A DNA stretch of 64,000 nucleotides from Podarcis erhardii (lineage: Eukaryota), in the NCBI GenBank assembly GCA_964252035.1, contig OZ176200.1. The stretch is one strand, 5' to 3'. The position numbers and the translations under genes were made by a program. Below, piece after piece: positions 1,418 to 17,973 of the stretch (its first letter is position 1; the number at the start of each line of letters is the position of its first letter). The notes beneath the pieces are model-generated. The model saw only the letters and a list, made by a program, of their open reading frames with translations, did not search any database and had not been told where the DNA came from.

Positions 1418-3687
1418 GTGCAGCAGTGGGCAGCACAGTTTCTATGCAGCAACCCTTCTGCCTTGACCCTTATGAATGGTTAAAGCAACAGCCATACTCT
1501 GCCATTCTGAAACAGGCAGCTGAAGACTGTAAAAGAGGGATAACATAATCACGGATACTTCAGGTGTCAAGAAGTCTCCAACCAAGACATGGGATTCTGC
1601 TTGCACTAGCTGAAGGAGAAAGGCTGGAGTTTGCTCAAAAGTGCTGGCTTCCACCCATAGCATCCCATGGTGGCCTTATTTGTGATTCACGTACTAAAGG
1701 GTTTTAGTTGATTTTGCCACAGCACAAGCATCTGGGCTTATGTGCCATTTACTTGTGAGTCGGGTTGTTAAGATTGCATCGCCTTTTTCTCATGGTCATG
1801 TCAGATTCCTGTGAAATCTTCCACATGTACCAAGGTTATTTTCCAAGATTGATATCCGAATTGTTAGTGTCTCTGGTTTATTTTTTTAAAGCAACGCAAC
1901 GTGACTTGAATGTGAATTCTGCAATGGTAACAAAATTACTTGCTGCAGATGCATCCAATCACAATCTGTGCTGCATTAGGAGTGCTGCTGAGTCTGCAGA
2001 AATGAGATCTCCCACACCTTATGGACCAGGAGGTGCTTGGCTGTCCACGGCAAGAAGTACTGAAGTTAAACTCTGCTTGTCTGCCTTTCAACTCAATCGG
2101 AAGCATGTTTACTCACAAGTAAGTCCCACCACTTCCAAGGGTGGTGCTTTGGGCCCCTCTCCATTTGGGTTTTCCAGTGCCTGGTGGTGGATGGCAAATA
2201 GGAAAGACAGCACTGAGCACTGTTCTGCCATTCCTGTATTTCTGCTAGTTTAATGATACATTTCCTATCCTGAGATTTCCAAAGGTCTCTGGACTGAAAC
2301 CTGTGAGATACAGATATTATACGGACGATAATAATGCTACCATTGAAGCAAGATCTGAGTGCCAAGCCACAGGTATTTTGAAACCATCTAATCAAATGAA
2401 AACTAACGATCTCTTCTGAGCAAACAGAGAGAATGTTTTGGAATGCCAAATGACCTGTTTGTTGTTTTTTTTTAAAAAAAACCTCACGGAAAGAAGTTTG
2501 CTTTATCATCTGCTACATTTGAGTGGGAGATTTATAACAAACCTCTGCAGTATGATATGATATGGACTACAAATGGGATTATTCACAACCATTTTTTCCC
2601 ATTTGTAACTGTTGTCTGAAGCTCCTGAAGGTCATACATTAAATGGGCCGCCCGTGTCTGTCCTCCTTGAAAAAGAGCAAAAGGGGGGGGGGACGCATTA
2701 CCTTCTGGTGCAGCTGGTTATGCAGGGAAACAATAAATGGGAGAAGTGTTGGGTTGTCCTAAATGGTACAAATTGAATCGCGCTGACATTTTACAGAGCG
2801 GCAAATTGCTTATCTTATTCAAGTGCCTGATTTGTTTGCTTCTTGATGAGTTTTGCACCGTCCTTTGAAAGCAAAAGATAAATCTGGAGGAGGCCGCTGA
2901 GGCTTGCATTTGAAAACAGAAAAGGGGCAGGGAAGGAATCGGTGGATGTATTTCAAAGCATCGGCATTCAAACGGGGTGGGGAGAAGTTTCCTATGAGCC
3001 CCTAATTTTGTGTGGTTTCGGCTTGCGCCGTGCAATAGCAGTTCAAAGCAGGAAGACATGACTGCAAACCAACAGCCGTGTTTCCTATCTACACCCACAA
3101 ATGACTATTTGCCTTCCAGGAATCTTTGTACGATCTGCTACCCCTCCAGTACCTTCCTGCAGGCAATGGCTTGAAACATCTTGAATGACAAACTGCAGGC
3201 ATTCTTTTTTCCCAGTACTGAAAAATGGAGGTGACGTGCCTTCATGACTCTTTCCTTCAGTTTTGCAAACCTGAGGCTATGCTTGCTCTACTTTGGGGAT
3301 GCTGCTGAGCTGCTGAAACTCGGGTGGGGAGAACAGGGGGGTGGAGCATGAAAGGAAGCCCCTTGCAAGTCGAGCCCCAGCTGGTCTCAACAAGGCTCAA
3401 AGGAGCAGTCCTTTAAGTGATGCTTGATAGGTAGAAGGAAGGCTCATGGAGAGGTCTATCTGCTCCAGTGCTCCATTCAAAGTAGACCCATTGTGTGTAG
3501 TGGAGGACATGCACAGTAGATTTCACTCTAAGACTGCAGTTCTATGCATATCCCCTTGGGAGCAATGCACACTGAACCCCATAACGGTTGCTTCTGAACT
3601 GCATTGAAATGGGCTGCAGGAGTTTTTTTTTTCTTGATAGCCCTCAATCCCTGCACCCTATATTTAGACCTATGGACTTCAATTATT

Positions 3688-4080: not shown

Positions 4081-6710
4081 GAGTACGTACCACACTGCAC
4101 TTTAATGGTTTTCAGGTCATCAGGGCTAGGCAGCATGATGCGTTCCATATGTTGATGAACTGCAGCTCCCATCATCACTGACCACTGGCCATTCTAGCTA
4201 TGGCTGGTGACAGATGGGATGCAATAACATCTGGAGGGCACCAAGTTGCCCACTTCCAAACACTTAGGAGTTCTCATGCATGGATATGCATATAGATTTA
4301 GCACACATTAATCTAGAATAAACGTGAAACATGTGCCAAAAGCAATGTGGATTTAGGTAAGCTTGCCATTTTAGAACACTTTTCTGCTTTGATAGAGCTC
4401 TCAGTTTCATTCCAAATTCCATTTTGGGAAGAATTTACTGACAACTTCCTCATAAGTTAACTTGTAATTCAGGAACTGTGTAGCTTTTCACCTGCAACCT
4501 GTGAAAACTACCAGATTTGATGAACATGTGCAGCCCCATTCTATGCGTGTCTCCTTGGATGTAAGAAACCTGCTGAGTTCTGTGGGACTTACTCTCGGCT
4601 GCAGTTTTATTCCTGTGACTCAAGAGGCCATTGGGAAGACTGTTTCTTGACCCCACTGGACGCCAACCTACTGTACAAATCATCTAACAGCTATTAAAAA
4701 ATGTAAATATTCTCCTTGTGCCACTGAGGTTTCATGAAGTCATGAATTATGAATTGTGAAGTCATGAATTATGAAGACAAGAACTGCCAATTAGCCAGTG
4801 CAAATTATGCATTGTGAATTAGCAAGATGCAGTAGTGAAGATCTCCAGTGTGAATCCTTTGAATGCAATCGCATCTGACTCTCATGTAATGCATTCCTAT
4901 ATATACTGAAGTATATTTTTATCGTAAACTGCTGAGAGATTTTCATTACGTGGTTGCCCCTGTTCCGTGGAGCAGCATTCATGTGGAGATACAGCAGGTG
5001 CTTGCTATCTGTACTTTTCGGAAACAGTTGAAGGCATTTTCATTTTGAAAAGCTTTTTCCAGCTGCATGAAAAGGTTTATCTCCCTTAGATGTTCATTTT
5101 GGATTGTTTTTAAACCCTGTGCCATTTCTAGAAAAAGAGGTGCTGGAACTCACCATGAATGCCTCCCTTGTTCTCTTACAATGGCAATGGCGCCCACCTG
5201 ATAGGTGCCAGAACTGATTTAAGGTGATTTCCAGCTGAAAGAAAGAGAGAGCCCTGTAGAAACCTATCTTCCATTACTTTTTGTACATTATTTTTAGGTG
5301 TTTTGTATGGTATGCTTGAAAATCCCATTGACACACATGTAAAAGGTGATTCAATATATAATACGCTGGGTGGGATTCAACGTGACATTAATAAAATGGG
5401 TCTGTCACTGAAAGCATTTCTGATTGACAGAAGACACAAACTGTCCTCCATGATACCTGCACACTGTTCTGGAGGTTCCTCTGCCCCCACCCCAGAGCTG
5501 ATGTTAGTGTGTGTTCTCGGAGCTTATGGGGGGAGGGTGGGGGGAAGTCTTGTTGCGCTAGGTATAGAATTGAAGCCTAAGGCTATAATCTTATATCCAG
5601 TTTCTTGGGAGTAGGTCCCATCGACTTCTTCTGAAGAGAAACATATAAGATTGTGATGTTAGAGGTAAGAACCTGACATGGCTAACATGTAGTGATTTCA
5701 CTCCGGGCTATCACTGTTTCCTGTCCTTGCAATATACCTGCAGAAACCACCCTGAAAAGATGGGTTGTCCTAAACATCTCAGTCAGTTTCTTTCCATTAA
5801 ATAAACATGATTTTGGAGATTCTTCTGGTGGCTTCCCTATATGGATATTTGCAGAGCTCTGTGTGTTGACCCAATAAAAATGAAGTTTTATTGATTTTTC
5901 TGTCTTCTGCTCATTGTATCTATTTCTGTCGGGTCATGCGTGCCACACAATGGTAGATCATCAATGACAGCCAGGGATGTGATGCCATGTGGCACTAAAT
6001 GTCTGGAAGCAACTTAGTGAAAACGTAGGAAGTGTTATTTTTACATATTCTAATGCAAACGGTGGAAAGTCATTGAGCCTTGCAGGCCCATCAGAAGAAT
6101 AGTCATGAGCCTAAAAGGAAGTGGGGGGGGGAGTGAGTTCTAATACACTGGTACAAATTGTCTCAGCTGCATCCCAAATAATGGACAACAATAATTTTTA
6201 TTTTCCTTGTTATGTAACAAAATGCAGAGTTGTTCTGCCACATCTCTCTCCTGATCTCCTTCTTGCCCTCCTCCCTCCCTCCCTCCCTCCCTCCAGACCT
6301 CATGTAAGTTGATATTTCATATTTATAGTTCCACTGAAATAAACAACATCCTCCAGCCTTTGACTGGGTCCTCCCCTAGCCTCCCTGCAGGAGCCTATCT
6401 TTGTGTATTATAGAGGAAGTTTCCGAGTACTTTGTGGAAGATGAACCGTTTATAGCTATGCCCGGAAAACCTGCCGTTCCTGTGATCCTTACCGAGATAA
6501 ATGATTGATCCTTACCACACAATAGTATAACTGGGGCTGAGCAGCGAAGGTTCTTGTCTTTAGAGAGAATGTGTGTAAGATGAACTGGAATGTGGTCCAC
6601 AACGGGTGGGCACAGAAACTTGGCTCCTCCCAGGGAACAAAACATGCTGCTTGTTGTTCTGAATAAGCTAGTCCAGGGCTATTTTATGACTTGCTTTAGT
6701 TACAGCCTTA

Positions 6711-7078
6711 AAGGTAAAGGTAAAGGTACCCCTGCCCATACGGGCCAGTCGTGTCCGACTCTAGGGTTGTGCGCCCATCTCACTTAAGAGGCTGGGGGCC
6801 AGCGCTGTCCGGAGACACTTCCGGGTCACGTGGCCAGCGTGACGAAGCTGCTCTGGCGAGCCAGCACCAGCACAGCACACGGAAACGCCGTTTACCTTCC
6901 CGCTATAAAGCGGTACCTATTTATCTACTTGCACTTAGGGGTGCTTTCGAACTGCTAGGTGGGCAGGAGGTGGGACTGAACGATGGGAGCTCACCCCGCC
7001 GCGGGGATTCAAACCGCCGACCATACGATCGGCAAGTCCTAGGCACTGCGGTTTTACCCACAGCACCACCCGTGTCCC
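6711..7078 (-). mobile_element. Sauria SINE, full length
   Basis: tRNA-like head at right end, (ACCTTT)n tail, 13-bp TSD AGTTACAGCCTTA (6698-6710, 7079-7091). Confidence 0.92.
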
Positions 7079-7961
7079 AGTTACAGCCTTATTTACCCAT
7101 TATTAGGGATGGAAGGATCTGTCATTTTTTGTTCTCTCAGTTTATCATTTACTGAAAGTTAAATTCAGTTCTCCAGATTTCTGCAGCGATTTACATTTTA
7201 AAAAAATAGCCTCGTGAAAATTCATTAGCATTTTAGTTTGAATTTCTGCCAATAAACACATTTTTCTGTGCAGTTCTGACTAACATACTTTTTTGGGTAA
7301 GCAATTTTTCCTAATGCTAAGAATGGTCATATGTAATTTTCATAGATAATGCTTATGTACAATTTTGCCATATATTGACATTTTTGTAAACACTCTTTGA
7401 TTGGAGAATTGCATTGCGAAATTTGAATTAGTGCAAATTTTCAAGGATGACTGTGATTCTGTTGTCATATTGTTTTGGAAAGTGCAAATTTGATAGATTT
7501 GCTTTTAAACTGAATTGAACTGAATTGAATTACTCCTCCACCTCTACCCATTTTACCTATCCATCCATAGCAAAACTCCATCTCTGGTCATGCACAGCAG
7601 CTAAATGGCCCTGGGTCAAAATGATTATCTGCATTAAAAGGCTAGTCTGGCCAGTTCTCTGGGACCCATTTGAACATTCCATTGTAGATGTCGATATGCA
7701 TTCATACAGAGAGCTGCTTTATTTACTTATTTTTAAAGGTATCTCTGTCCTTTCCTTCCAAAAGAGTCCATGGAAGGAAGCACAACAAAAGTGATAAAAC
7801 AATGCAACTAAAAATGCAATATATTTTTTCAAAAAACATTCAAGATAATGAATTGTAGCTGAGGGATCTCCGAAAAAGTCTCAGCACCCTTAACAAACTA
7901 CAGTTCCCAGGATTCTTAGGGAGAAGCCCTGACTGGTACCATAAAAGGAGTTTAAATGTAT

Positions 7962-7967
7962 AACGTG
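7962..7967. repeat. Target-site duplication AACGTG (left)
   Basis: Same hexamer at 15669-15674 directly outside the other LTR; 6-bp TSDs are typical of alpha/betaretroviral integrases. Confidence 0.93.
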
Positions 7968-8561
7968 TGTAGGAATGAAAATCACGGGAGACGAGCAGTG
8001 GGTGTCACGAGAGGCGTCTGCCGGGAAGTCCCGGGAACTCTCTTTTATTGAATATTACAAACATTGCCACAGGTGTGCTTGTGGCTGATTGGTTGATACA
8101 AACACAAAGAAACTCGTTGCTTATTGGTTAATGCAAATGCAAGGCGGGAATTACATGTGAGGGGTGGGAATTACATGTGAACATTAATCACTGGTAGATT
8201 AAAGGCTGGGAGACGAGGTTGGGACTAGACAAGCATGAAACCTCCTAATTAATAATAACTAAAGATTAATATGGCATAAAACAATTACTAATGATTTATC
8301 ATAACATGAAAGAATACAATAATCAAGTTCTATAGATGTGGTCAGTTATGCATGGAGAACGAGTCACCATGAACTTAAGGTGAACTGAGCGATGAGGGAA
8401 TGTCTTGGTGTTTGGAACAGGTTCGTACAGTGTGTGCAGAAACAGAGAAAAGATTATAAGCAAGACTTCCCAAAATGCAAGAGAAAAGAAGCAATGCTTC
8501 CCATAAGGCCACAGTTATGTGCAGAGGGAAAACATATGTGCAGAAGGAAAACTTCCCTTTA
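7968..8561 (-). repeat. 3' LTR of provirus (594 bp)
   Basis: Preceded on minus strand by PPT; AATAAA at 8044-8049 (minus), CCAAT boxes, octamer. Confidence 0.97.
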
Positions 8562-8580
8562 TCTCCCCCTTTCTTTTCTT
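8562..8580 (-). promoter_or_regulatory. Polypurine tract AAGAAAAGAAAGGGGGAGA
   Basis: Purine-only run abutting the 3' LTR. Confidence 0.92.
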
Positions 8581-8743
8581 ATTTGCGAGGCATACTGGGT
8601 AAGGCAAAAATGTTTCGGGATTAGTGGTGTGCCAGCAAATGCCCGAAATAAGTTCGCCAGGGAGGATGGGACAGAAGATACCACGAGATACGTGGTTTGC
8701 CAGCGCATGCTCGAGATAACTCTGCCCATTTCTCCCCTTTGGT

Positions 8744-10218
8744 TTACTGTTGGTGTTGCCATTTCGCAAGATAAGCAGCAAGGATTTTATTGGGTGGCTG
8801 AGGGGGAGAGAGAAGCCGAGAGAAAAGACTTATGAGGCCAGGAATGCATTGGAGGAAGCAGCAAAACAAAATTAATATACATATAATAACAATGGCATAT
8901 TGAAAAAGACTACGAAGCCAAGTAAAATTTGGCAGCCATGCAGTAAGCCACTGGGTGAAAGAATCCCAGAGACCGGAGAATTCAACATCTTGTTTAATGT
9001 GGTGTGTAAGATTTTGTAAATGGGAGATTTGTTTTTGGATGGCCTTAGAATTGTCAGTGATATTAAAGCAGCACATGTTTTCCACTTGTTCGCATCCGTA
9101 ATGATGGAGCATCAACAGATAATCGACAGCAGCGCGATTCTGCAGGAGGCCATGCCGGAGTTCACTCTGCTCCTTATTCAAAAATGAAGGGCTTGTGAAG
9201 TAAAATTCAAAGCTTTTGCTGCGGAGCAAGCTAAAGAGTTAATATTTCTGCTATTCTGGACAGCCAATCCAGGGACTCCTAAGAGAGAGACAGCTAAAGA
9301 AATATATTCAGTTCTGCTAGGGAGGGAGACGGAATCATCGCAATCGTTATTCAATTCTATAGCACGTCGATATCGAGATCGGGATAAATGATGCTTTTTG
9401 GGTAAAATGATGGACAAACGGCTTAAACAGCAGGGTGTACCGTGGCTAATGTTTGCTGGAATATAATTAAACGTATAGCCAGGACACGACCAGAACCAGC
9501 CTTCAGGCAGCTCTGTATATTTATATATATATGAGATATTTACATAATTAGAGCAATTAAAATTATCCTTACCCATCTCCACACAGTTGGTTTTTGTGCA
9601 ATTGACCATACGGGCACAAGTAACATTAAAAGAAGCCACGTACGGGGTTGACAGATCAATGGCCAAAGGTGGGCGTCGGCGCATTTGGTTACCCCAAAGT
9701 TGGTAACCGTCATAACCAAGGGTGCGGAGAGAGTCATTTTGGGGTAGGGACGAGAACCACCAGGTGTCATTTTGTATATCAAAGGGATCGTGACAAACAG
9801 GGATAAGGCAAGAACCAAGGATTTCGCCGATGGATACTTGCTGGGTGAGGCAGAAAGAAGAAACATTAAGGGTTTTTGCAAAAGATTCCCACACATTTAT
9901 TGGTGTGGAATCACCGCCGTTAGGAGCGGAGGCTGAGAGGGGCAAAAACAAAACACTAAAAATGAGCACTATCATGGAATTTATGTTAAGACAGGAGATG
10001 AGACACAAAAGCAAATTATTAGGGGTCGCTTCAAGCTGCTGTTCCTTTCTAAGCTGTTCAGCTTGAAATGAAAGTGATTTTATTTGGCCCCACGTCACTG
10101 GTCCATTACGGTTTCCCCGCTTGCGAGTCCTGGGGGGAGCGGGCGTCGCATCCTGGGTGATCTGCAGCTGACCGTCGAACTGCGGTATTGGATTCTGCAG
10201 AGCCTGTTGCCAAGCCAT
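8744..10218 (-). CDS. env: Retroviral Env (Rec/Rem-like signal peptide, ASLV-type SU and TM), interrupted by a 1-nt break at A5 run 9180-9184; ~491 aa if repaired
   Basis: ATG 10218 in good Kozak context after acceptor TTTCTACTCCACAG (10259); RYRR furin site 9364-9375; Cys-flanked internal fusion peptide; LQNRAAVDYLL ISD; CEQVENMCC (CX6CC); TM anchor AIVIICILILFCC. Confidence 0.95.
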
Positions 10219-12748
10219 GATGGAGGCGGACGCAGCGTGCGGGAACCCAGCGAGCACCCTGTGGAGTAGAAACTGCAGCATAACCCTTTCCCCACGTAAT
10301 CAATTTCACTGGTTCACTCCATTCATTGGAGGGTAATATTTTATAGCGGACCAGTGGGGCTGGGAGTATCTCTGTCTGCTGAAAATGCTTCTGGAGGCGA
10401 GTGTAAGATTGATGATCCTGTATGGAAATATTCAAATGGTTGAGAGTAAAGAGAACACTGGCCAACCAGGCTTCTTTTTCAGAAAGCGAGGCTGGGATTC
10501 CGGCCTTCTTTTCCTGCCGGATTAAAGCAGTTTTTAAAGTGCGGTTAGCACGTTCAACAATGGCTTGGCCTTGAGAATTATAAGGGATGCCAAATAAATG
10601 GTGAATATTCCAAGTCTCACAAAACTGAGCAAAGCTTTTTGCACAATATGCTGGGGCATTGTCAGTTTTTAAAGAATGGGGCTTGCCCATGACTGACATA
10701 GTACGAACAAGGTGATTGCAAACATGCTTAACTTGCTCACCCCTTTGAGGGGTGGCCCAAATATAACCTGAGAAGGTATCAATGCAGACATGTATAAACT
10801 TCCAAGGTGAAAAGGGGGCAAAGTGAGTTACATCCATTTGCCACAACTGGTTGGCTTCCAGCCCACGGGGATTGACACCAGGGCTAGGGTGGCCAATCTG
10901 ATTAGAGCATTGAGGACATTGTTGGATAATTGCACGAGCCGCTTCCAACGGGATGTGGAATTGGCGGCTTAGAGCTTTCGCATTTTGATGGTGGAAAGCG
11001 TGACTTTCAATGGGGGAGACAGGCAAAACCCTGAGCAAAGAGTCTGCTTTTGCATTACCATCATTGAGGAAACCTGGGAAAGGTTGGTGGGAGCGAATGT
11101 GCACCACAAAAAGTGGATGGGAGCGATTGGAAATAAGCAATTGTAAAGACAAAAAAAGGCTCAATAAATTGTCATCCAATGAAGGACTTACATAACTGCC
11201 TTGTAGGCGGGTTATGACATTTGCGACATAAAGACTGTCCACAATCAAATTAAATGGCTGTTTGGAGAAATGGTGCAAGGCCTTGACAGCGGCTGCCAAC
11301 TCAGAACGCTGGGCAGACTTTTGTGGAAGAGTGTAAAGGCTTTGCCATTCCCCATTCTGTTGCCACGCGACTACTCCCCTGGAGGGGGCTCCGTCAGTGA
11401 AGACAGTAGGGGCATCCAAAGGGACAGGAGATAATATGGAAGAAAAAGATAGGGAAATTTGTTTGCTCATTTGCAGGCGAGGGTCGGCTGGGATATGGCA
11501 ACCCACTTGGCCGACAAACTCAGCTAAAGCACACTGCAAATCCATACTATTGGAGAGAGCAGTTTCCCATTGTTCCAGGGGCATGGGCACAATTATTTGG
11601 TTGCAATCAACGCCAAAGAGGCTTTTGCAGCGACGGCGTCCCTTGCTGATGAGCTGAGCAAGGAGATCCACTAAAGGAGTTACCGTGTTCTTTGGTGTAT
11701 GATGTAAATACAGCCATTCAATTATATGAACTTTTGATGGGCCTAACTGAATAATGGCTGCAAAGGGTTGGACAGAGTCCGTCATTATGACCACACCGGG
11801 CAAAACATTAAGGATTGCTCGATCAACCCAGTGGAGGCGCATAAGTTCCTTTAACTGGGCAACAGTCTGCTGTTGAGAAGAGGTCAAGATAATTTTAGCA
11901 CCAGGAGAATGGTGGCCTTTTAAGGCTGAAAAAAGTGGCCGTAAAACTTCAAGAGGGATTTTAAAATAGGGTCTTATCCAGTTGATGTTGCCCAGCAATT
12001 GCTGCAGCTGGACATATTTCATTGTTTTTGGGATATGTAATTCGGGGACTATAGGAATGGAATAGCTAGCTATCATTTTGTGCCCCAAATAATGAAAGGG
12101 GGAGGATTCCTGGACTTTCTCTGGGGCGATATGCAAACCATAAAGTGACAAACAAGTTATCAAATCCTGTTTCCATTGAGGGGGGAGGCTTGGCCCGCTG
12201 ATGAGCAGGTCATCAGTATAATGATAAATCAGGAGATGTGGATACCGAAGGCGAAAGGGCTGGAGGGCTTGATTCACATAATATTGGCACATGGTAGGGG
12301 AGTTCAACATTCCTTGCGGCAAAACCTTCCATTGGAATCTTTCTGTTGGCTGGCTATTATTTAATACAGGAACAGTGAAGGCAAAAAATTTACGATCCTT
12401 CTCCTGTAGGGGAATGGAGAAGAAGCAATCTTGCAAATCTATAATAGCCAATTGATAGGAATGTGGAATCGCATTTGGATTAGGCAGACCACACTGCAAA
12501 GGCCCCATGGGTTCAAGGATCTGGTTTATTTTCCGGAGGTCTTGGAGAAATCTCCACTTTCCGCTTTTCTTTCGTATGACAAAGACAGGGGTATTAAAGG
12601 GGCTTACAGAAGGCTCTATGTGGTCAGCCAATAATTGTTGATTCACCAGATTCTTTAAAGCAATGAGTTTCTCGCCCGTGATGGGCCATTGTTCCACCCA
12701 TATCGGACTGGTAGATTTCCAGGTAAGGGGAAGCGCAAGCTTACTCAT
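10106..12748 (-). CDS. pol: Retroviral Pol (RT-RNase H-integrase), uninterrupted 880 aa
   Basis: PLTWK, LQDLR, LPQG, YTDD; RNase H FTDGA/SELAA/VDSLY; IN H-H-C-C, WQMD, KTDN, IVER, WGKGYA. Confidence 0.97.
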   Translation of the reverse strand: MSKLALPLTWKSTSPIWVEQWPITGEKLIALKNLVNQQLLADHIEPSVSPFNTPVFVIRKKSGKWRFLQDLRKINQILEPMGPLQCGLPNPNAIPHSYQLAIIDLQDCFFSIPLQEKDRKFFAFTVPVLNNSQPTERFQWKVLPQGMLNSPTMCQYYVNQALQPFRLRYPHLLIYHYTDDLLISGPSLPPQWKQDLITCLSLYGLHIAPEKVQESSPFHYLGHKMIASYSIPIVPELHIPKTMKYVQLQQLLGNINWIRPYFKIPLEVLRPLFSALKGHHSPGAKIILTSSQQQTVAQLKELMRLHWVDRAILNVLPGVVIMTDSVQPFAAIIQLGPSKVHIIEWLYLHHTPKNTVTPLVDLLAQLISKGRRRCKSLFGVDCNQIIVPMPLEQWETALSNSMDLQCALAEFVGQVGCHIPADPRLQMSKQISLSFSSILSPVPLDAPTVFTDGAPSRGVVAWQQNGEWQSLYTLPQKSAQRSELAAAVKALHHFSKQPFNLIVDSLYVANVITRLQGSYVSPSLDDNLLSLFLSLQLLISNRSHPLFVVHIRSHQPFPGFLNDGNAKADSLLRVLPVSPIESHAFHHQNAKALSRQFHIPLEAARAIIQQCPQCSNQIGHPSPGVNPRGLEANQLWQMDVTHFAPFSPWKFIHVCIDTFSGYIWATPQRGEQVKHVCNHLVRTMSVMGKPHSLKTDNAPAYCAKSFAQFCETWNIHHLFGIPYNSQGQAIVERANRTLKTALIRQEKKAGIPASLSEKEAWLASVLFTLNHLNISIQDHQSYTRLQKHFQQTEILPAPLVRYKILPSNEWSEPVKLITWGKGYAAVSTPQGARWVPARCVRLHHGLATGSAESNTAVRRSAADHPGCDARSPQDSQAGKP

Positions 12749-13523
12749 TAAATTGAATGGAAGCTTGTAATTGTTGCAATAAATCTCTTCCCCACAGATT
12801 GAGGTGGATTTTTAGCACACAGGGCTGAATAAATGCAATGGTATCAGAGCTATCAGGCAGAGAAACAGGCAGCCATTGTACGCTTTTGGAAGAATTTTGT
12901 GGGCCACCCACACCCCAGACTGCAGAGGCAGGCTCAAGGGGCCACGTGGGGTCCCAACAATTACTGGAAATTACAGAAATGTCCGCGCCAGTATCAATCA
13001 AGCCCTCCAGAACTTTGCCATTAATTTTATACTTACGAAGAATTTTTTGGTCACCGATCCTCTGGATTACAGCTAATAACTGTGGAGAGAGAGAAGAGAG
13101 CTGGTGCAAATTACTATCCATAATAGAAGCAGTAGGAGGGGTAGGAAGCACTACCAAATGTGCCCAGGAGTCACCCTTTTTTAACTGCATGGGCATATGG
13201 CTCCAAAGTTGAAGCATTATTGTGCCCACATAGTCAGGATCCAAGGCTGCAGGAATAACCATGATTCCTTCTTTGGCTGCAGAAGATTTCGGCAAAATCA
13301 AACCTGCGACCTTGGGAGGTAGTGGACCTGCAAGTTGGGTGGGCATGAGCACGATTTCACCAGGCAAAACAGAGTCTTTGGATTCCTGATTAATTAAATC
13401 AATGGTGAAATCTGAGGGTATCTCCTTAGGAAAAGCATCAATGGTGGTAGCCGATGGCAATGGGCCCTCTAATTCTCGTGGCCCGAGGGCGGGGCCAGCA
13501 TGGAGTTTCCCGAACTCCTGCAC
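12741..13523 (-). CDS. pro: Retroviral Pro: degenerate dUTPase-like domain plus aspartyl protease (entered by -1 frameshift at ~13505)
   Basis: GLILPKSS / LDPDYVGTI dUTPase-like motifs; LIDTGAD active site and LWGRDLL; no G-patch. Confidence 0.94.
   Translation of the reverse strand: MQEFGKLHAGPALGPRELEGPLPSATTIDAFPKEIPSDFTIDLINQESKDSVLPGEIVLMPTQLAGPLPPKVAGLILPKSSAAKEGIMVIPAALDPDYVGTIMLQLWSHMPMQLKKGDSWAHLVVLPTPPTASIMDSNLHQLSSLSPQLLAVIQRIGDQKILRKYKINGKVLEGLIDTGADISVISSNCWDPTWPLEPASAVWGVGGPQNSSKSVQWLPVSLPDSSDTIAFIQPCVLKIHLNLWGRDLLQQLQASIQFNE
13464..13511 (-). promoter_or_regulatory. gag-pro -1 ribosomal frameshift signal: G GGA AAC + 7-nt spacer + H-type pseudoknot
   Basis: Slippery heptamer 13505-13511 in gag frame; stem1 TGGCCC/GGGCCA, stem2 GCCCTC/GAGGGC, loops 1 and 9 nt; pro frame is -1 to gag. 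Confidence 0.9.
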
Positions 13524-14943
13524 TGATTAGCCCAATGATAGCCTTTACCGCACTTTGGGCATTTCTTGGAGGGTTTAGCCTTATTGGCAGTACCATCCCT
13601 GTGCGCCCCACCGCCAGGTGCCCTGCATTCTTTTGCAAAATGACCAGGGCGCTTGCAATTAAAACAGTTACCAGTTGGTTTATTGCCAGCCTGGATGGCA
13701 CCGGCAAGCAAGGACATGGCATGGCTCTGGCTTCCAATGTCCGCACAGGCTTGAATCATCTGCGCCAGATCATATTTTGGGCGATTAGTGATCGACTGCA
13801 AAGCCTTCTTACAGTCAATGTTCGCATTTTCAAACGCCAATTTTTTCATCAATTCATTCTGGGCTGTAGTATTATCAACCTGCCTGGTCACTGCTTCTTT
13901 CAATCTATCTATAAATTGGTGGTAGGGCTCTGAATTAAGTTGTTTAATATTAACAAAAGAGCTCAGCGGCTGCCCTGAGACAGGGACTTTTCGAAAGGCG
14001 CGCTGTACGCAAGTCGCGGTGCGGCTAAAATGTGCAGGCGTCAGCGTCGCCTGGGCTGTTATATTATCAAAAAGACCGGCACCATAAAGTTCATTAGCTG
14101 TATGCTGGGCATCAGACAGGGCTGAAGCACTAAGCCGAAATTCACTATCAAAGACAACATACTGGGCTGGTGAGAGCAACATGCGCATTAAATCCTTCCA
14201 ATCTTGGGGCAGCATGGTATAACCAGACGCAATCCCCTCCAGCATCCCTGTGACATAGGAGGATTTTAAGCCAGAATCAGCAATGGCCCTCCTCAATTCT
14301 CTCAATACAGAATAAGGAAGGGTTTCATAAAACACCTGTTGTTGAGCATTTCCTGCGTTTGCATAGGTGATAGGGAAGGCAGATGGCATTTCCCCCGCCC
14401 ACTCAGATTCTTCCTGCAAGGACAAAAGCCCCTTCTGTCTTGCCTGAGAAAGTGCAGCACGCACGGCTCCAGTAGGAGCAGGCAAAGAAGGAGGGGGGGA
14501 AAGGGGGATGGGGGGGTGGAAGCAGGTTGAGATGGAGGAGAAGCAGGGGGGGGTTTGCCGGGCTGCAAAGGAGAAGGAGGCAGGAGCTGTGGAGAAGTGG
14601 GATAAGGGGGGGGATTGTCTGCTGCAGGCAGGAGAGCAGGGGCCGAAGGAGACGCCTGGGGGACCTGGGGTCCAAACTTTGCAACGGCCTCTGCACATTT
14701 CTGCCAGGTAAGCAGACAATGAATCGGAGCCCTCGGTTCTGCAAAGAGGGTCTTTCCGATCTTTTGCCAAGTCTCCACATCGAGAGAGCCAGTCTCAGGA
14801 TAGAAAAGACATTGGCGATTAATTTCACAAATGAGGTGTTCAATTTCTTTTAAGGAAACATGAGCACCCACAACCCGCTGTCTAACTAAAGAGAACAATT
14901 CCCTAGCATGTTTTTTCTGCAATTTAGTTAAATCGCCGCCCAT
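13469..14943 (-). CDS. gag: Retroviral Gag (MA-late domains-CA-NC), interrupted by one 1-nt frame break in G-runs at ~14493-14553; ~491 aa if repaired
   Basis: MGGDL start (Gly2), PSAP and PPPY, MHR-like QLNSEPYHQFIDRL, two CCHC knuckles CFNCKRPGHFAKEC and CPKCGKGYHWANQC; pieces in track ORFs 14302-15051 and 13469-14770. Confidence 0.95.
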
Positions 14944-14949
14944 ACTCAC
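14944..14949 (-). promoter_or_regulatory. Candidate major splice donor GTGAGT immediately 5' of gag ATG
   Basis: Consensus intronic hexamer; exon side (TTC) is weak; would pair with env acceptor at 10259. Confidence 0.55.
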
Positions 14950-15054
14950 GAAGTAGCGCGCTTTGACTTTTCCAGTCGAGTGAAGTACAGGGGCTGGGCT
15001 GCGTAAGGGATCTGGCACGTCCGGGGTCACCAGATGCACGTCCGGGGTCACCAG

Positions 15055-15072
15055 ATCACGTCGGGGTCACCA
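15055..15072 (-). promoter_or_regulatory. Primer binding site, tRNA-Trp (TGGTGACCCCGACGTGAT)
   Basis: 18 nt, 2 nt after LTR end (CA-TC-TGG); matches the known ASLV/RSV tRNA-Trp PBS sequence; two variant copies follow (15015-15053). Confidence 0.93.
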
Positions 15073-15074
15073 GA

Positions 15075-15668
15075 TGTAGGAATGAAAATCACGGGAGACG
15101 AGCAGTGGGTGTCACGAGAGGCGTCTGCCGGGAAGTCCCGGGAACTCTCTTTTATTGAATATTACAAACATTGCCACAGGTGTGCTTGTGGCTGATTGGT
15201 TGATACAAACACAAAGAAACTCGTTGCTTATTGGTTAATGCAAATGCAAGGCGGGAATTACATGTGAGGGGTGGGAATTACATGTGAACATTAATCACTG
15301 GTAGATTAAAGGCTGGGAGACGAGGTTGGGACTAGACAAGCATGAAACCTCCTAATTAATAATAACTAAAGATTAATATGGCATAAAACAATTACTAATG
15401 ATTGATCATAACATGAAAGAATACAATAATCAAGTTCTATAGATGTGGTCAGTTATGCATGGAGAACGAGTCACCATGAACTTAAGGTGAACTGAGCGAT
15501 GAGGGAATGTCTTGGTGTTTGGAACAGGTTCGTACAGTGTGTGCAGAAACAGAGAAAAGATTATAAGCAAGACTTCCCAAAATGCAAGAGAAAAGAAGCA
15601 ATGCTTCCCATAAGGCCACAGTTATGTGCAGAGGGAAAACATATGTGCAGAAGGAAAACTTCCCTTTA
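15075..15668 (-). repeat. 5' LTR of provirus (594 bp)
   Basis: Identical by eye to 7968-8561 except G15404 vs T8297; adjacent to PBS; minus-strand termini TA...CA. Confidence 0.97.
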
Positions 15669-15674
15669 AACGTG
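15669..15674. repeat. Target-site duplication AACGTG (right)
   Basis: Matches 7962-7967. Confidence 0.93.
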
Positions 15675-15767
15675 GATGTGACTTTAGTGCCCCCAGTCTC
15701 AAACTTGTTGTTCAGAGGCAACTGTACCACATCCAGATTGCACATTTCCCACAATCCACCACAGAGA

Positions 15768-16148
15768 TGTTGTTGTTGTTTAGTCGTTTAGTCACGTCCG
15801 ACTCTTTGTGACCCCATGGACCAGAGCACGCCAGGAACTCCTGTCTTCCGCTGCCTCCCGCAGTTTGGTCAAACTCATGCTGATAGCTTCGAGAATACTG
15901 TCCAACCATCTCGTCCTCTGTTGTCCCCTTCTCCTTGTGCCCTCCATCTTTCCCAACATCCAGGGTCTTTTCCAGGAAGTCTTCTCTTCTCATGAGGTGG
16001 CCAAAGTATTGGAGCCTCAGCTTCAGGATCTGTCCTTCCAGTGAGTACTCAGGGCAGATTTCCTTCAGAATGGATAGGTTTGATCTTCTTGCAGTCCATG
16101 GGACTCTCAAGAGTCTCCTCCAGCACCATAATTCAAAAGCATCAATTC
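15768..16148 (-). mobile_element. Bov-B (RTE) LINE 3' fragment
   Basis: (CAA)n tail; translation RVPWTARRSN...YFGHLMRR typical of Bov-B RT C-terminus. Confidence 0.9.
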
Positions 16149-17973
16149 CTTAGGGTTTTTTTTTCATGTTGAGCTTCAGACCATAACCACAGAGATAGGG
16201 ATGTTTAAAAACCTTATAAGCATTAAAAAAATACTCCCAGAAATGTTGCTGGGGACAATTCCCTACCTCAAGCTAAATTCTAATGCATCTCAGGGTAGTG
16301 CATGTTTTGGTGTCAGGAAAGGCACTTAAGTAAGTCTGCTTCACCAGAGCAGATTTTATGTGGAATACTCTATTCCCATATTTATCCTAATACTTTCCAT
16401 TGGCCCAAACAAAGCACAGCAAACACAGGAGTCAGCAGGGGGATTTCTTGGGACTTTTTCTTTCCCATGTTCTTTTGGGTGTCCCATATTCTGTGTGGGG
16501 TCTGCAGGTCAGATATTTTTTGGGGGGAGGGCAAGTTTACACCATTGTAGTAGCTGGGACAACCCCCCTTCCCAACCCATGCCTCCCTCCAAGATTCAGC
16601 TGTCATTTAGGGTGTGTGTGTTTTTTTAAAGGCTGGAGTATATATATATATATATATGTATAAAAAAAGAAAATATGCTAATCGTTTTCCAACAGCTCAT
16701 TAGCATATTAACTAGGAGGAGCTTTTTACAAGAAGGCAGCAGTAAGCCAAGTAAGATCACAACTTAAAGGTAAGGACTTTTTAAAAAAATAATAATTAAC
16801 ATGCGAAAAAATAATCCTAAGACTGTTGGAGCAATTGCTGCCCCTATGCATTTGATCAGCGCTTCTTGTTTTGCATTGCATGTAACCAAATGGTTGATGA
16901 TGAATGCCAGGTAAATGGGACTTGCAGGTGTTGGGCAGAGCTTTTGTGCCTCGAGGTCCTGGCACCCAAACGGTGTCCTTCAAACTGGAACAGAAAGTTG
17001 AGGCTCTTTGCTACTCTTGTCCTTTCTCAGTTTTGCATGAAAGTTCCGCTGCCCTGCTTTTTCCCTCCCTTCCCTTTCTCTAGTGACAACACCTCGAAAA
17101 GTCAAATACACTTTATAGTTCTGGCCTTTAGTTAATCGCATTTGATGCCTGGTAATTAACGGGAGCATTTTCTTCTTACGTTGGGACATGTACTGCTAAA
17201 ATTCATTTACCAGCTACAAAGGAGAGGGAGAGCTGTTTGTGTTTTTTTCATCTGAACTAGCATTAACCCAAGGCTCAGAAAAGAGAGAGGCAGTCATTGA
17301 ATCACAATGATTATTGGGGGCTCAGATCTAAATAATCTCCGTGCACTTGGATGCATATTTCCTTTTGAGTCATAGCCAAAAGTTATTCGAGTTGCTTACA
17401 AAAACTCTTTCTTCATCTTACACCGAATCCCTTAGCAAATCCTCAAATATCTTTGCAAATCTCAAAGATATTAAGGCATTTAACTCCCTCACCCTACCTC
17501 CTCCCATTCAGACCTTTGATGCCTGGTGTGACTAGAATGATTTTAGAGTTGTAACTCATAGCCTGAATAAGAAATTAAGGGAAGCACTTTGCAAAAAGAT
17601 AAAAAAGGGAGGGGGAAGTAGCTAGTACAATATCTAATTACTTATAGATTTTAAGTCAAATTTGAACAAGATAAATATTTAAATAAAAGGTACAATCATT
17701 TAGAGTTGCTGCTAGCCACCCCCACCCCACCGGCGAGGGTACATTTCTGAATTCAGTAGATAGCCAAGTAAATGAATTTATTAGGGTTACACATGATTTA
17801 CATCAGTCTATCTAAAAGAAGTCTGGTGTGCCATTTCTATAGGAAGTTCCATTTGTGTAATATGGTTGTGTTATCTAGCTCTCCATGCTATACTTACTGT
17901 TGATAGAAATTCCTGGGTTGTGAGCTAGTGTGATATGATGTGTAGCTGCTTGAGTGACTGACATAAATCTTCT

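Follow-up and report, generated by a model that had tools for sequence, protein, structure and literature searches.

A provirus at positions 7968-15668, on the minus strand of a 64,000-nucleotide stretch of DNA from the lizard Podarcis erhardii (assembly GCA_964252035.1, contig OZ176200.1; the whole stretch is called the window), has its polymerase gene (pol) in the +1 frame relative to its protease gene (pro), and an AUG in the pol frame overlaps the end of pro. Orthoretroviruses are described as obtaining Pol through a frameshift or through readthrough, so that it is joined to Gag when packaged and the ratio of the two proteins is set. An earlier note on this DNA, made from the letters alone, had assumed two -1 frameshifts. 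For the pro-pol junction this is wrong, since the junction is +1 and has no slippery heptamer; the -1 pro-pol frameshift of the betaretrovirus type is absent. A conserved and selected junction that is unable to use the canonical -1 shift implies that this lineage does something else. Our tentative proposal, drawn from sequence comparison, is that a recently infectious lizard-snake-turtle lineage of orthoretroviruses may have dropped the Gag-Pro-Pol fusion, may make free reverse transcriptase (RT)-integrase (IN) by reinitiation and package it in trans, and may carry a Rec/Rem-type leader on an alpha-type envelope protein (Env).

Structure of the pro-pol junction

The best 30 of 83 RT matches in the same genome were scored for the frame of pol relative to pro. 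In all 21 family copies that retain the protease (RT N-terminus 77-100% identical to the window), pol is +1 to pro and has an in-frame AUG, which is followed after 2 nt by the stop codon of pro. Six of the 30 loci belong to sister families with a -1 junction at A-AAT-TTA and no AUG. The other three are one with the same A-AAT-TTA junction but a miscalled frame, one without protease, and L080, which reads AUG-UC-UGA. Another 12 stretches, of which three overlap loci already scored and two have no protease, gave L083, one more copy of the family, and more copies of the slippery type. L083 (RT identity 59%) has AUG-UC-UGA with the AUG in frame with RT, and L080/L090 (57-63%) have the AUG overlap followed by a microsatellite. 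Two distant families therefore keep AUG-nn-STOP though the stop codon and the nn differ from those of the window family.

No -1 slippery heptamer is found at any of the 24 AUG junctions. An ATG in that register occurs by chance at 1.6-2.6% of codon junctions in these genes. In the RT tree, junctions of the AUG type occupy two branches and those of the slippery type another one. One sister family of class II in this genome (L070, L075, L087, L091) retains a canonical -1 site and has no dUTPase match by tblastn.

The same layout appears to be present in Pol proteins from other datasets. Five of 11 reptile-clade proteins begin with M-[ST]-[KDNR] at the junction position, as the overlap would encode, two of the five forming one cluster. 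Among 62 Pol proteins from outside the clade one fits, by a misplaced motif. A search of representative proteins added two that are nearest to the reptile clade, neither with the AUG pattern.

Selection on pol was estimated by the simple Nei-Gojobori method between the window and six siblings (dS 0.03-1.1, one gag value being saturated). The ratio of nonsynonymous to synonymous substitution rates (dN/dS) is 0.07-0.11 for pol, which implies that Pol has worked in the +1/AUG layout, and 0.11-0.21 for pro. It is conceivable that the +1 junction is a lesion of a master copy whose Pol comes from another family, as might be expected from the many non-autonomous deletion copies of this family that are mobilised in trans. 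However, the pol dN/dS of siblings with the same junction stays at about 0.1 for full-gene dS values as high as 0.58, the layout is shared by families whose RT differs by about 40%, and a Podarcis lilfordi protein (P0149) reads through the same pol-frame residues. A master-copy lesion is largely refuted by the selection signal, and we consider it highly improbable.

Possible route to Pol

The AUG-nn-STOP layout resembles that of calicivirus termination-reinitiation, and by this analogy a free Pol is likely. Ribosomes would translate Gag, and a fraction would shift -1 at GGGAAAC and its pseudoknot to make Gag-dUTPase-protease (PR). Part of these ribosomes would re-initiate at the AUG located 5 nt ahead of the pro stop and release free Pol, which would be packaged in trans via RNA or Gag. 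From the sequence pattern, we lean slightly towards termination-reinitiation at AUG-nn-STOP, rather than a Gag-Pro-Pol fusion, as the source of Pol.

Several observations weigh against reinitiation. None of the 21 copies has the exact UGGGA motif of the termination upstream ribosome-binding site (TURBS) in the 110 nt upstream; UGGGG, not UGGGA, is found at -45 in 20 of 21, because protease WG codons lie there. The RNA upstream of the junction folds no better than shuffled sequence (z +0.6). A candidate +1 slip site, UUU-A, immediately precedes the AUG at 21 of the 24 junctions, the exceptions being old or damaged copies, and a candidate -2 slip site, GGGG, is present at most of the 24. Two D-type-like references, L016 and L021, also have pol at +1, after AAAUUUA (~4480-4500 and ~3620-3640, respectively) and with no AUG, by a -2 slip or an error in the record; the +1 register is thus compatible with slippage or record errors. 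The AUG families are of common ancestry and so are not independent cases, six of the 11 clade proteins do not fit the AUG start pattern, and an M is written by gene callers whatever the start codon. Lastly, a free Pol forfeits the hold on Gag by which a frameshifted Pol is packaged (PMC3542737).

Many of these points would be accommodated if ribosomes shifted frame non-canonically, by +1 or -2, close to where pro ends, yielding an ordinary Gag-Pro-Pol fusion, and the AUG were incidental. Packaging of Pol would be solved, the UUU-A candidates and the +1 references without AUG would have a role, the pol frame is open for 17-21 codons upstream of the AUG in 23 of 24 junctions, and the stem downstream of the junction folds at z -2.1. 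On the other hand, no slip site is common to all three families, the protease would lose its end if ribosomes slipped by -2 at the WG codons, and L068 has a pol-frame stop immediately upstream of the AUG (1 of 24 junctions). The distance from AUG to stop is also fixed in spite of varying flanking bases and stop codons. We regard such a frameshift as unlikely, if the strongest competitor of reinitiation.

Foamy viruses express Pol from its own spliced mRNA. Production of Pol here from its AUG on a spliced pol mRNA would explain both the AUG and the missing slip site, and an acceptor-like stretch is seen by eye about 75 nt upstream of the AUG in the window family. In L080/L090, however, the acceptor-like AG is missing at that place. 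The Kozak context of the AUG is weak, with T at -3 in 24 of 24 junctions, which makes it a poor fit to scanning on a spliced mRNA, and a spliced mRNA needs no stop codon held 2 nt past the AUG. This route is improbable.

Termination-reinitiation at the overlap would be a new route if our reading is correct, joining frameshifting, readthrough, and splicing as ways to produce retroviral Pol. A literature search, mostly outside subscription papers, yielded no account of reinitiation for retroviral pol. The reinitiation table of PMC3542737 lists no retrovirus in the part covered, and that review classes beta- and deltaretroviruses under double -1 frameshifting. Calls of +1 between pro and pol exist in automated tables of endogenous retroviruses (ERVs), where they make up 27% of beta ERVs and are ascribed to damage after integration (PMC3482500, PMC1224870). 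The available part of PMC5009743 contains no matter on these points.

Organization of the provirus

All features named in the earlier note were located on the minus strand, which is the provirus strand. They are listed below with the flanking duplications. LTR, PBS, SU, TM, MA, and CA denote long terminal repeat, primer binding site, surface subunit, transmembrane subunit, matrix, and capsid; ISD is the immunosuppressive domain and ASLV is avian sarcoma/leukosis virus.

7962-7967 (strand not applicable): left target-site duplication, 6 bp, same letters as 15669-15674
7968-8561 (minus): 3' LTR, 594 nt, ends TA...CA, 1 mismatch to the 5' LTR
8562-8580 (minus): polypurine tract
8744-9238 (minus): env 3' frame, alpha-type TM with ISD, CX6CC, and membrane anchor (PDB match to ASLV TM, E 3e-14; TM tree)
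9178-9924 (minus): env 5' frame, alpha-type SU without CXXC, furin site, Cys-flanked internal fusion peptide
about 9184-9220 (minus): zone of env frame change in this copy
9925-10218 (minus): Env signal peptide, ~98 aa, basic cluster followed by a TWGQ...TP motif, partly overlapping the pol end
10106-12748 (minus): pol (RT-RNaseH-IN), open, 880 aa from the AUG, RT motif YTDD
12741-12748 (minus): AUG-nn-STOP overlap, pol AUG at 12748-12746 and pro stop at 12743-12741, pol +1 to pro
12741-13511 (minus): pro frame with dUTPase (~13379-13140) and protease (~13034-12756), no G-patch
13465-13511 (minus): gag-pro -1 signal, GGGAAAC, 7-nt spacer, and H-type pseudoknot
13469-14943 (minus): gag, beta-type MA with N-terminal Gly, PSAP, PPPY, CA, two zinc knuckles
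about 14494-14647 (minus): zone of gag frame change in this copy
15015-15072 (minus): tRNA-Trp PBS (15055-15072) and two imperfect repeats
15075-15668 (minus): 5' LTR
15669-15674 (strand not applicable): right target-site duplication, 6 bp, same letters as 7962-7967

The coding region consists of six frames: gag 5', gag 3', pro (261 aa), pol (901 aa from stop to stop), env 5', and env 3'. The description of the provirus as near-intact is too strong for this copy: pro and pol are open, but gag and env each switch frame, and the copy is therefore defective in both. Retroposon fragments, which we take to be RTE/Sauria-SINE-like (SINE, short interspersed element), flank the provirus at 15712-16149 and 6724-7100.

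Gag, protease, and the gag-pro frameshift

The betaretroviral character ascribed earlier to Gag and Pro is borne out. Window Gag has a beta-type MA (PF02337, E 1.4e-8), CA, and two zinc knuckles, the second of beta type (PF14787, E 1.1e-10), and the late-domain motifs PSAP and PPPY are found at 14649 and 14613. The separate pro frame encodes an N-terminal dUTPase (PF00692, E 3.2e-10) followed by the protease (PF00077), and RT, RNase H, and IN are detected by Pfam in pol. With the -1 entry into pro, these are hallmarks of betaretroviruses. The alpharetroviral arrangement is absent, as Gag and Pro are not in one frame and a dUTPase is present. MA, CA, PR, and IN all score higher against betaretroviruses than against avian leukosis virus (ALV).

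Entry into pro by GGGAAAC and a pseudoknot, as predicted in the earlier note, agrees with comparison among copies. The slip site is at 13511-13505 and is followed by an H-type pseudoknot. The pattern was recognized in 19 of 22 copies, and in these 19 pairing is preserved at 5-6 of 6 and at 5 of 5 positions, with a compensatory change in stem 2. The plain minimum free energy fold of the signal is not exceptional (z +1.2).

Envelope and its leader

SU and TM were correctly recognized as being of the ASLV type. The best PDB match of TM is ASLV TM (E 3e-14; next family 5e-4). SU alone has no PDB or Pfam match, and a profile of reptile and caecilian SUs finds ALV SU at E 1.6e-8, with gamma- and D-type Envs at 0.02 or above. 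CX6CC, the Cys-flanked internal fusion peptide, and an SU without CXXC are traits of the avian gamma-type Env of alpharetroviruses by the definition of TM types in PMC3758190, which also reports a gamma env in python endogenous retrovirus (PyERV). In a TM tree of 34 rows (one sequence lacking the anchor motif was dropped), the window groups with ALV and alpha-like Envs (support 100/99). It is not with gamma-type TMs, a placement that had been named in advance as evidence against the ASLV assignment, and the beta- or gamma-type TM expected of a betaretrovirus is not seen. The nearest TMs are from Mauremys (turtle) Envs, and avian TMs form a separate subclade. A rabbit protein with the annotation 'syncytin-2' (P0138) has an Env of alpha-like type, which shares 47% identity with the Env of the window family.

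Env is preceded by a leader of about 98 aa that is kept in lizard and turtle Envs. It had been described as Rem/Rec-like, a likeness that a sequence profile supports and Pfam shows only weakly. The match of Pfam Rec (PF15695) to the window leader is below the cut-off (E 0.015), and weak matches (E 5e-4 to 0.19) occur in four of 11 proteins scanned. When a profile of seven reptile leaders was run against 2185 open reading frames (ORFs), the top matches were two beta Env leaders, L028 (E 5e-9) and mouse mammary tumor virus (MMTV; E 0.003), and the L028 leader itself matches Pfam Rec above the cut-off. The same search returned no ALV or caecilian Env and also missed a leader like that of Jaagsiekte sheep retrovirus (JSRV); the caecilian Rhinatrema Env P0137 has no Rec-like leader. 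Homology of the window leader to betaretroviral Rec/Rem-type leaders is thus supported by the profile. It is reported that the signal peptides of ALV and murine leukemia virus are short and those of betaretroviruses long and multifunctional (PMC9967133).

A Rec/Rem-type leader that overlaps the end of integrase and stands on an alpha-type Env suggests that the env swap took place inside env, behind the leader. The long signal peptide would have been inherited from a beta-like ancestor, its SU/TM having been exchanged for the alpha type. By analogy with Rem and Rej, the leader may act on unspliced RNA. The signal peptide of HERV-K (a human endogenous retrovirus) itself is reported to be without Rec export activity (PMC2649029), and function should therefore not be assumed for the reptile leader. 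In the literature search described above, no Rec-type leader on an alpha Env was found. The family would extend the Rec/Rem-type signal peptide to reptiles and to alpha-type Env.

Phylogenetic position

The reference sequences in the trees are viral contigs, of which L025 is ASLV and L017 is MMTV by PDB integrase matches. The labels JSRV-like, MPMV-like (Mason-Pfizer monkey virus), SMRV-like (squirrel monkey retrovirus), delta, and gamma are ones we presume for the others. Lymphoproliferative disease virus, endogenous avian virus, HERV-K, PyERV, and ERV-AB-Mun are not among the named references. Pol belongs to class II, with alpha- and betaretroviruses and apart from delta and gamma (99/97 for RT, 100/100 for whole Pol). 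In the RT tree (38 rows), the window lies among lizard, snake, and turtle elements, in a clade of 12 rows (97/80), in which six other named members are all reptile and five rows are unnamed. This clade is sister to a group of ALV, on a long branch, and avian and mammalian class II sequences (96/87). In the whole-Pol tree (24 rows), the reptile clade is supported at 96/98 and the placement of ALV is unresolved; the base of the IN tree is unresolved as well.

Taken together, trees and scores indicate a backbone that is beta-like but a clade of its own, with SU/TM of alpha type. The element had been suggested to be an intermediate or a recombinant between the genera. The combination of beta-like Gag, Pro, and Pol with an alpha-type Env agrees with the latter. 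As an evolutionary intermediate toward alpharetroviruses it would share with ALV its PBS and Env type; the grouping of the reptile clade with ALV is not found in the tree but is not rejected by the approximately unbiased (AU) test (p 0.28), and there is a weak Rfam match to the Rous sarcoma virus (RSV) stability element. The AU test does reject the window and ALV as sisters (p 0.002), the RT tree places ALV with the avian/mammalian group, the MA, CA, PR, and IN scores favor beta over ALV, and the nearest TMs are those of turtles rather than birds. Moreover, alpha-like envs occur on gamma, epsilon, and ERV-L backbones and so say little about descent. An intermediate is doubtful. Any account of the alpha/beta split must place this distinct reptile clade.

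The Rfam match lies in RT, just after the pro stop (12375-12663, minus strand), with 40 bits against a cut-off of 105 (E 4e-9), and may be mere coding homology of RT.

The family in the host genome

At least 54 stretches match the internal region (34 of 159 candidates scored) and at least 42 match the LTR (40 of 513 candidates scored). Recent activity, as claimed for this provirus, is evident. Its LTRs (7968-8561 and 15075-15668) differ at 1 of 594 positions and are flanked by a 6-bp duplication, and the other six of seven LTR pairs compared are identical. Five of these seven insertions have clean 6-bp duplications and two are tandem arrays; six are short elements without pro and pol. From the single LTR difference at an assumed rate, the insertion is loosely younger than a few million years. 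The purifying selection on pol and pro extends to env 5' (dN/dS 0.12-0.28), which suggests that the family spread by reinfection.

The nearest named proteins are from Podarcis lilfordi (90% identity), followed by turtles, snakes, and Varanus. A direct scan of viral contigs with the window RT gave no match. Many non-autonomous elements of 2.7-3.2 kb without pro and pol (L096-L110) have identical LTR pairs, some in tandem with a common LTR. Older, more divergent copies are concentrated on a 30-Mb contig (G000:C19), possibly a repeat-rich sex chromosome.

LTR ends, primer binding site, and RT motif

The tRNA-Trp PBS recognized in the earlier note is confirmed by the host genome: all 18 nucleotides of positions 15055-15072 are complementary to a host tRNA-Trp(CCA) gene, at its 3' end after addition of CCA. 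A first, stricter tRNA pattern had given no match, and a looser one gave three, two of them called tRNA-Trp. The PBS is the same in the ALV-type references L024/L025, and ten beta-type references carry a different one. Among 10 LTR loci with an adjoining PBS, this copy alone has it tripled (one perfect and two imperfect), perhaps by slippage during strand transfer.

In the young subfamily U3 begins with TA, not TG, in 19 of 20 LTR loci (L093-L112; 15667-15668 and 8560-8561 in the window). TA-ended insertions that were tested have exact 6-bp duplications, and integrase evidently used the non-canonical end; the older siblings L009/L010 have TG. The RT active site is YTDD, fixed in the young subfamily, in eight of 12 loci (two have another motif, and in two it was not found), while nearly all relatives in a 114-row RT comparison, whose tree is a quick search only, have YMDD. 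A defect of a single copy was considered for both the TA end and YTDD and was rejected, as each is common to the family. The earlier note had passed over both, as well as the tripled PBS and the +1 register of pol to pro.

Comparison with known systems

An alpha/beta mosaic by itself is only moderately interesting; the real novelty is at the pro-pol junction. As to novelty, which the earlier note had left to be checked, the mosaic is largely in print (PMC12690878, PMC13568524, PMC1224870) and represents, in a reptile, a kind that is known in part. According to PMC13568524, whose main text, in the part available, mentions neither Podarcis nor dUTPase, reptiles carry alpha-like envs ubiquitously; such envs are also described on other backbones (bioRxiv 2024.07.05.601823, 2024.03.17.585361). 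What look new are the conserved +1, AUG-overlapping pol junction under purifying selection and the Rec/Rem-homologous signal peptide on alpha-type Env in lizards and turtles.

ERV-AB-Mun of a caecilian shares a class II pol, a separate pro ORF, an alpha-like env, and a very recent age with the window provirus, and caecilian Rhinatrema Envs are in the same TM clade. Compared by description only, it differs in being reported as nearest to alpharetroviruses, with YMDD and 325-bp LTRs (PMC12690878); none of the matches listed for the window proteins is named as this element. Avian alphabeta ERVs also have a separate pro and no G-patch, and 21 of 67 in chicken have a dUTPase in Pro (PMC3482500, PMC1224870). 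Unlike the window, they commonly use -1/-1, with one of nine scored pro-pol junctions at +1 (PMC1224870, Table 1), and none of the sampled class II Pols from birds belongs to the reptile clade.

ALV/RSV (L025) has an identical 18-nt tRNA-Trp PBS, an alpha-type SU/TM, and a 6-bp target-site duplication, but its Gag and Pro are in one frame, its MA is of another family, it has neither dUTPase nor Rec-like leader, and its pol is reached by -1. MMTV, JSRV, and HERV-K share MA, CA, the second knuckle, dUTPase-PR, the gag-pro -1 pseudoknot, and, by profile homology, a long regulatory-type Env signal peptide. They differ by a Lys-type PBS, a beta- or gamma-type TM, and a -1 pro-pol frameshift. PyERV and the beta-related squamate and turtle ERVs (PMC6001957) likewise form a class II lineage of reptiles that lies close to where the beta branch begins. 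By description, PyERV is set apart in having -1/-1, a murine env of gamma type, and no dUTPase (PMC3482500, PMC1224870, PMC3758190).

For the junction itself, the closest likeness is outside retroviruses. The window departs from calicivirus reinitiation in the lack of an exact TURBS, the motif being expected 40-90 nt upstream. As in caliciviruses (AUGnnUGA) and victoriviruses (AUGnnUAG), a long upstream ORF and a downstream ORF overlap by AUG-nn-STOP, and in victoriviruses the pair so joined is Gag and Pol (PMC3542737).

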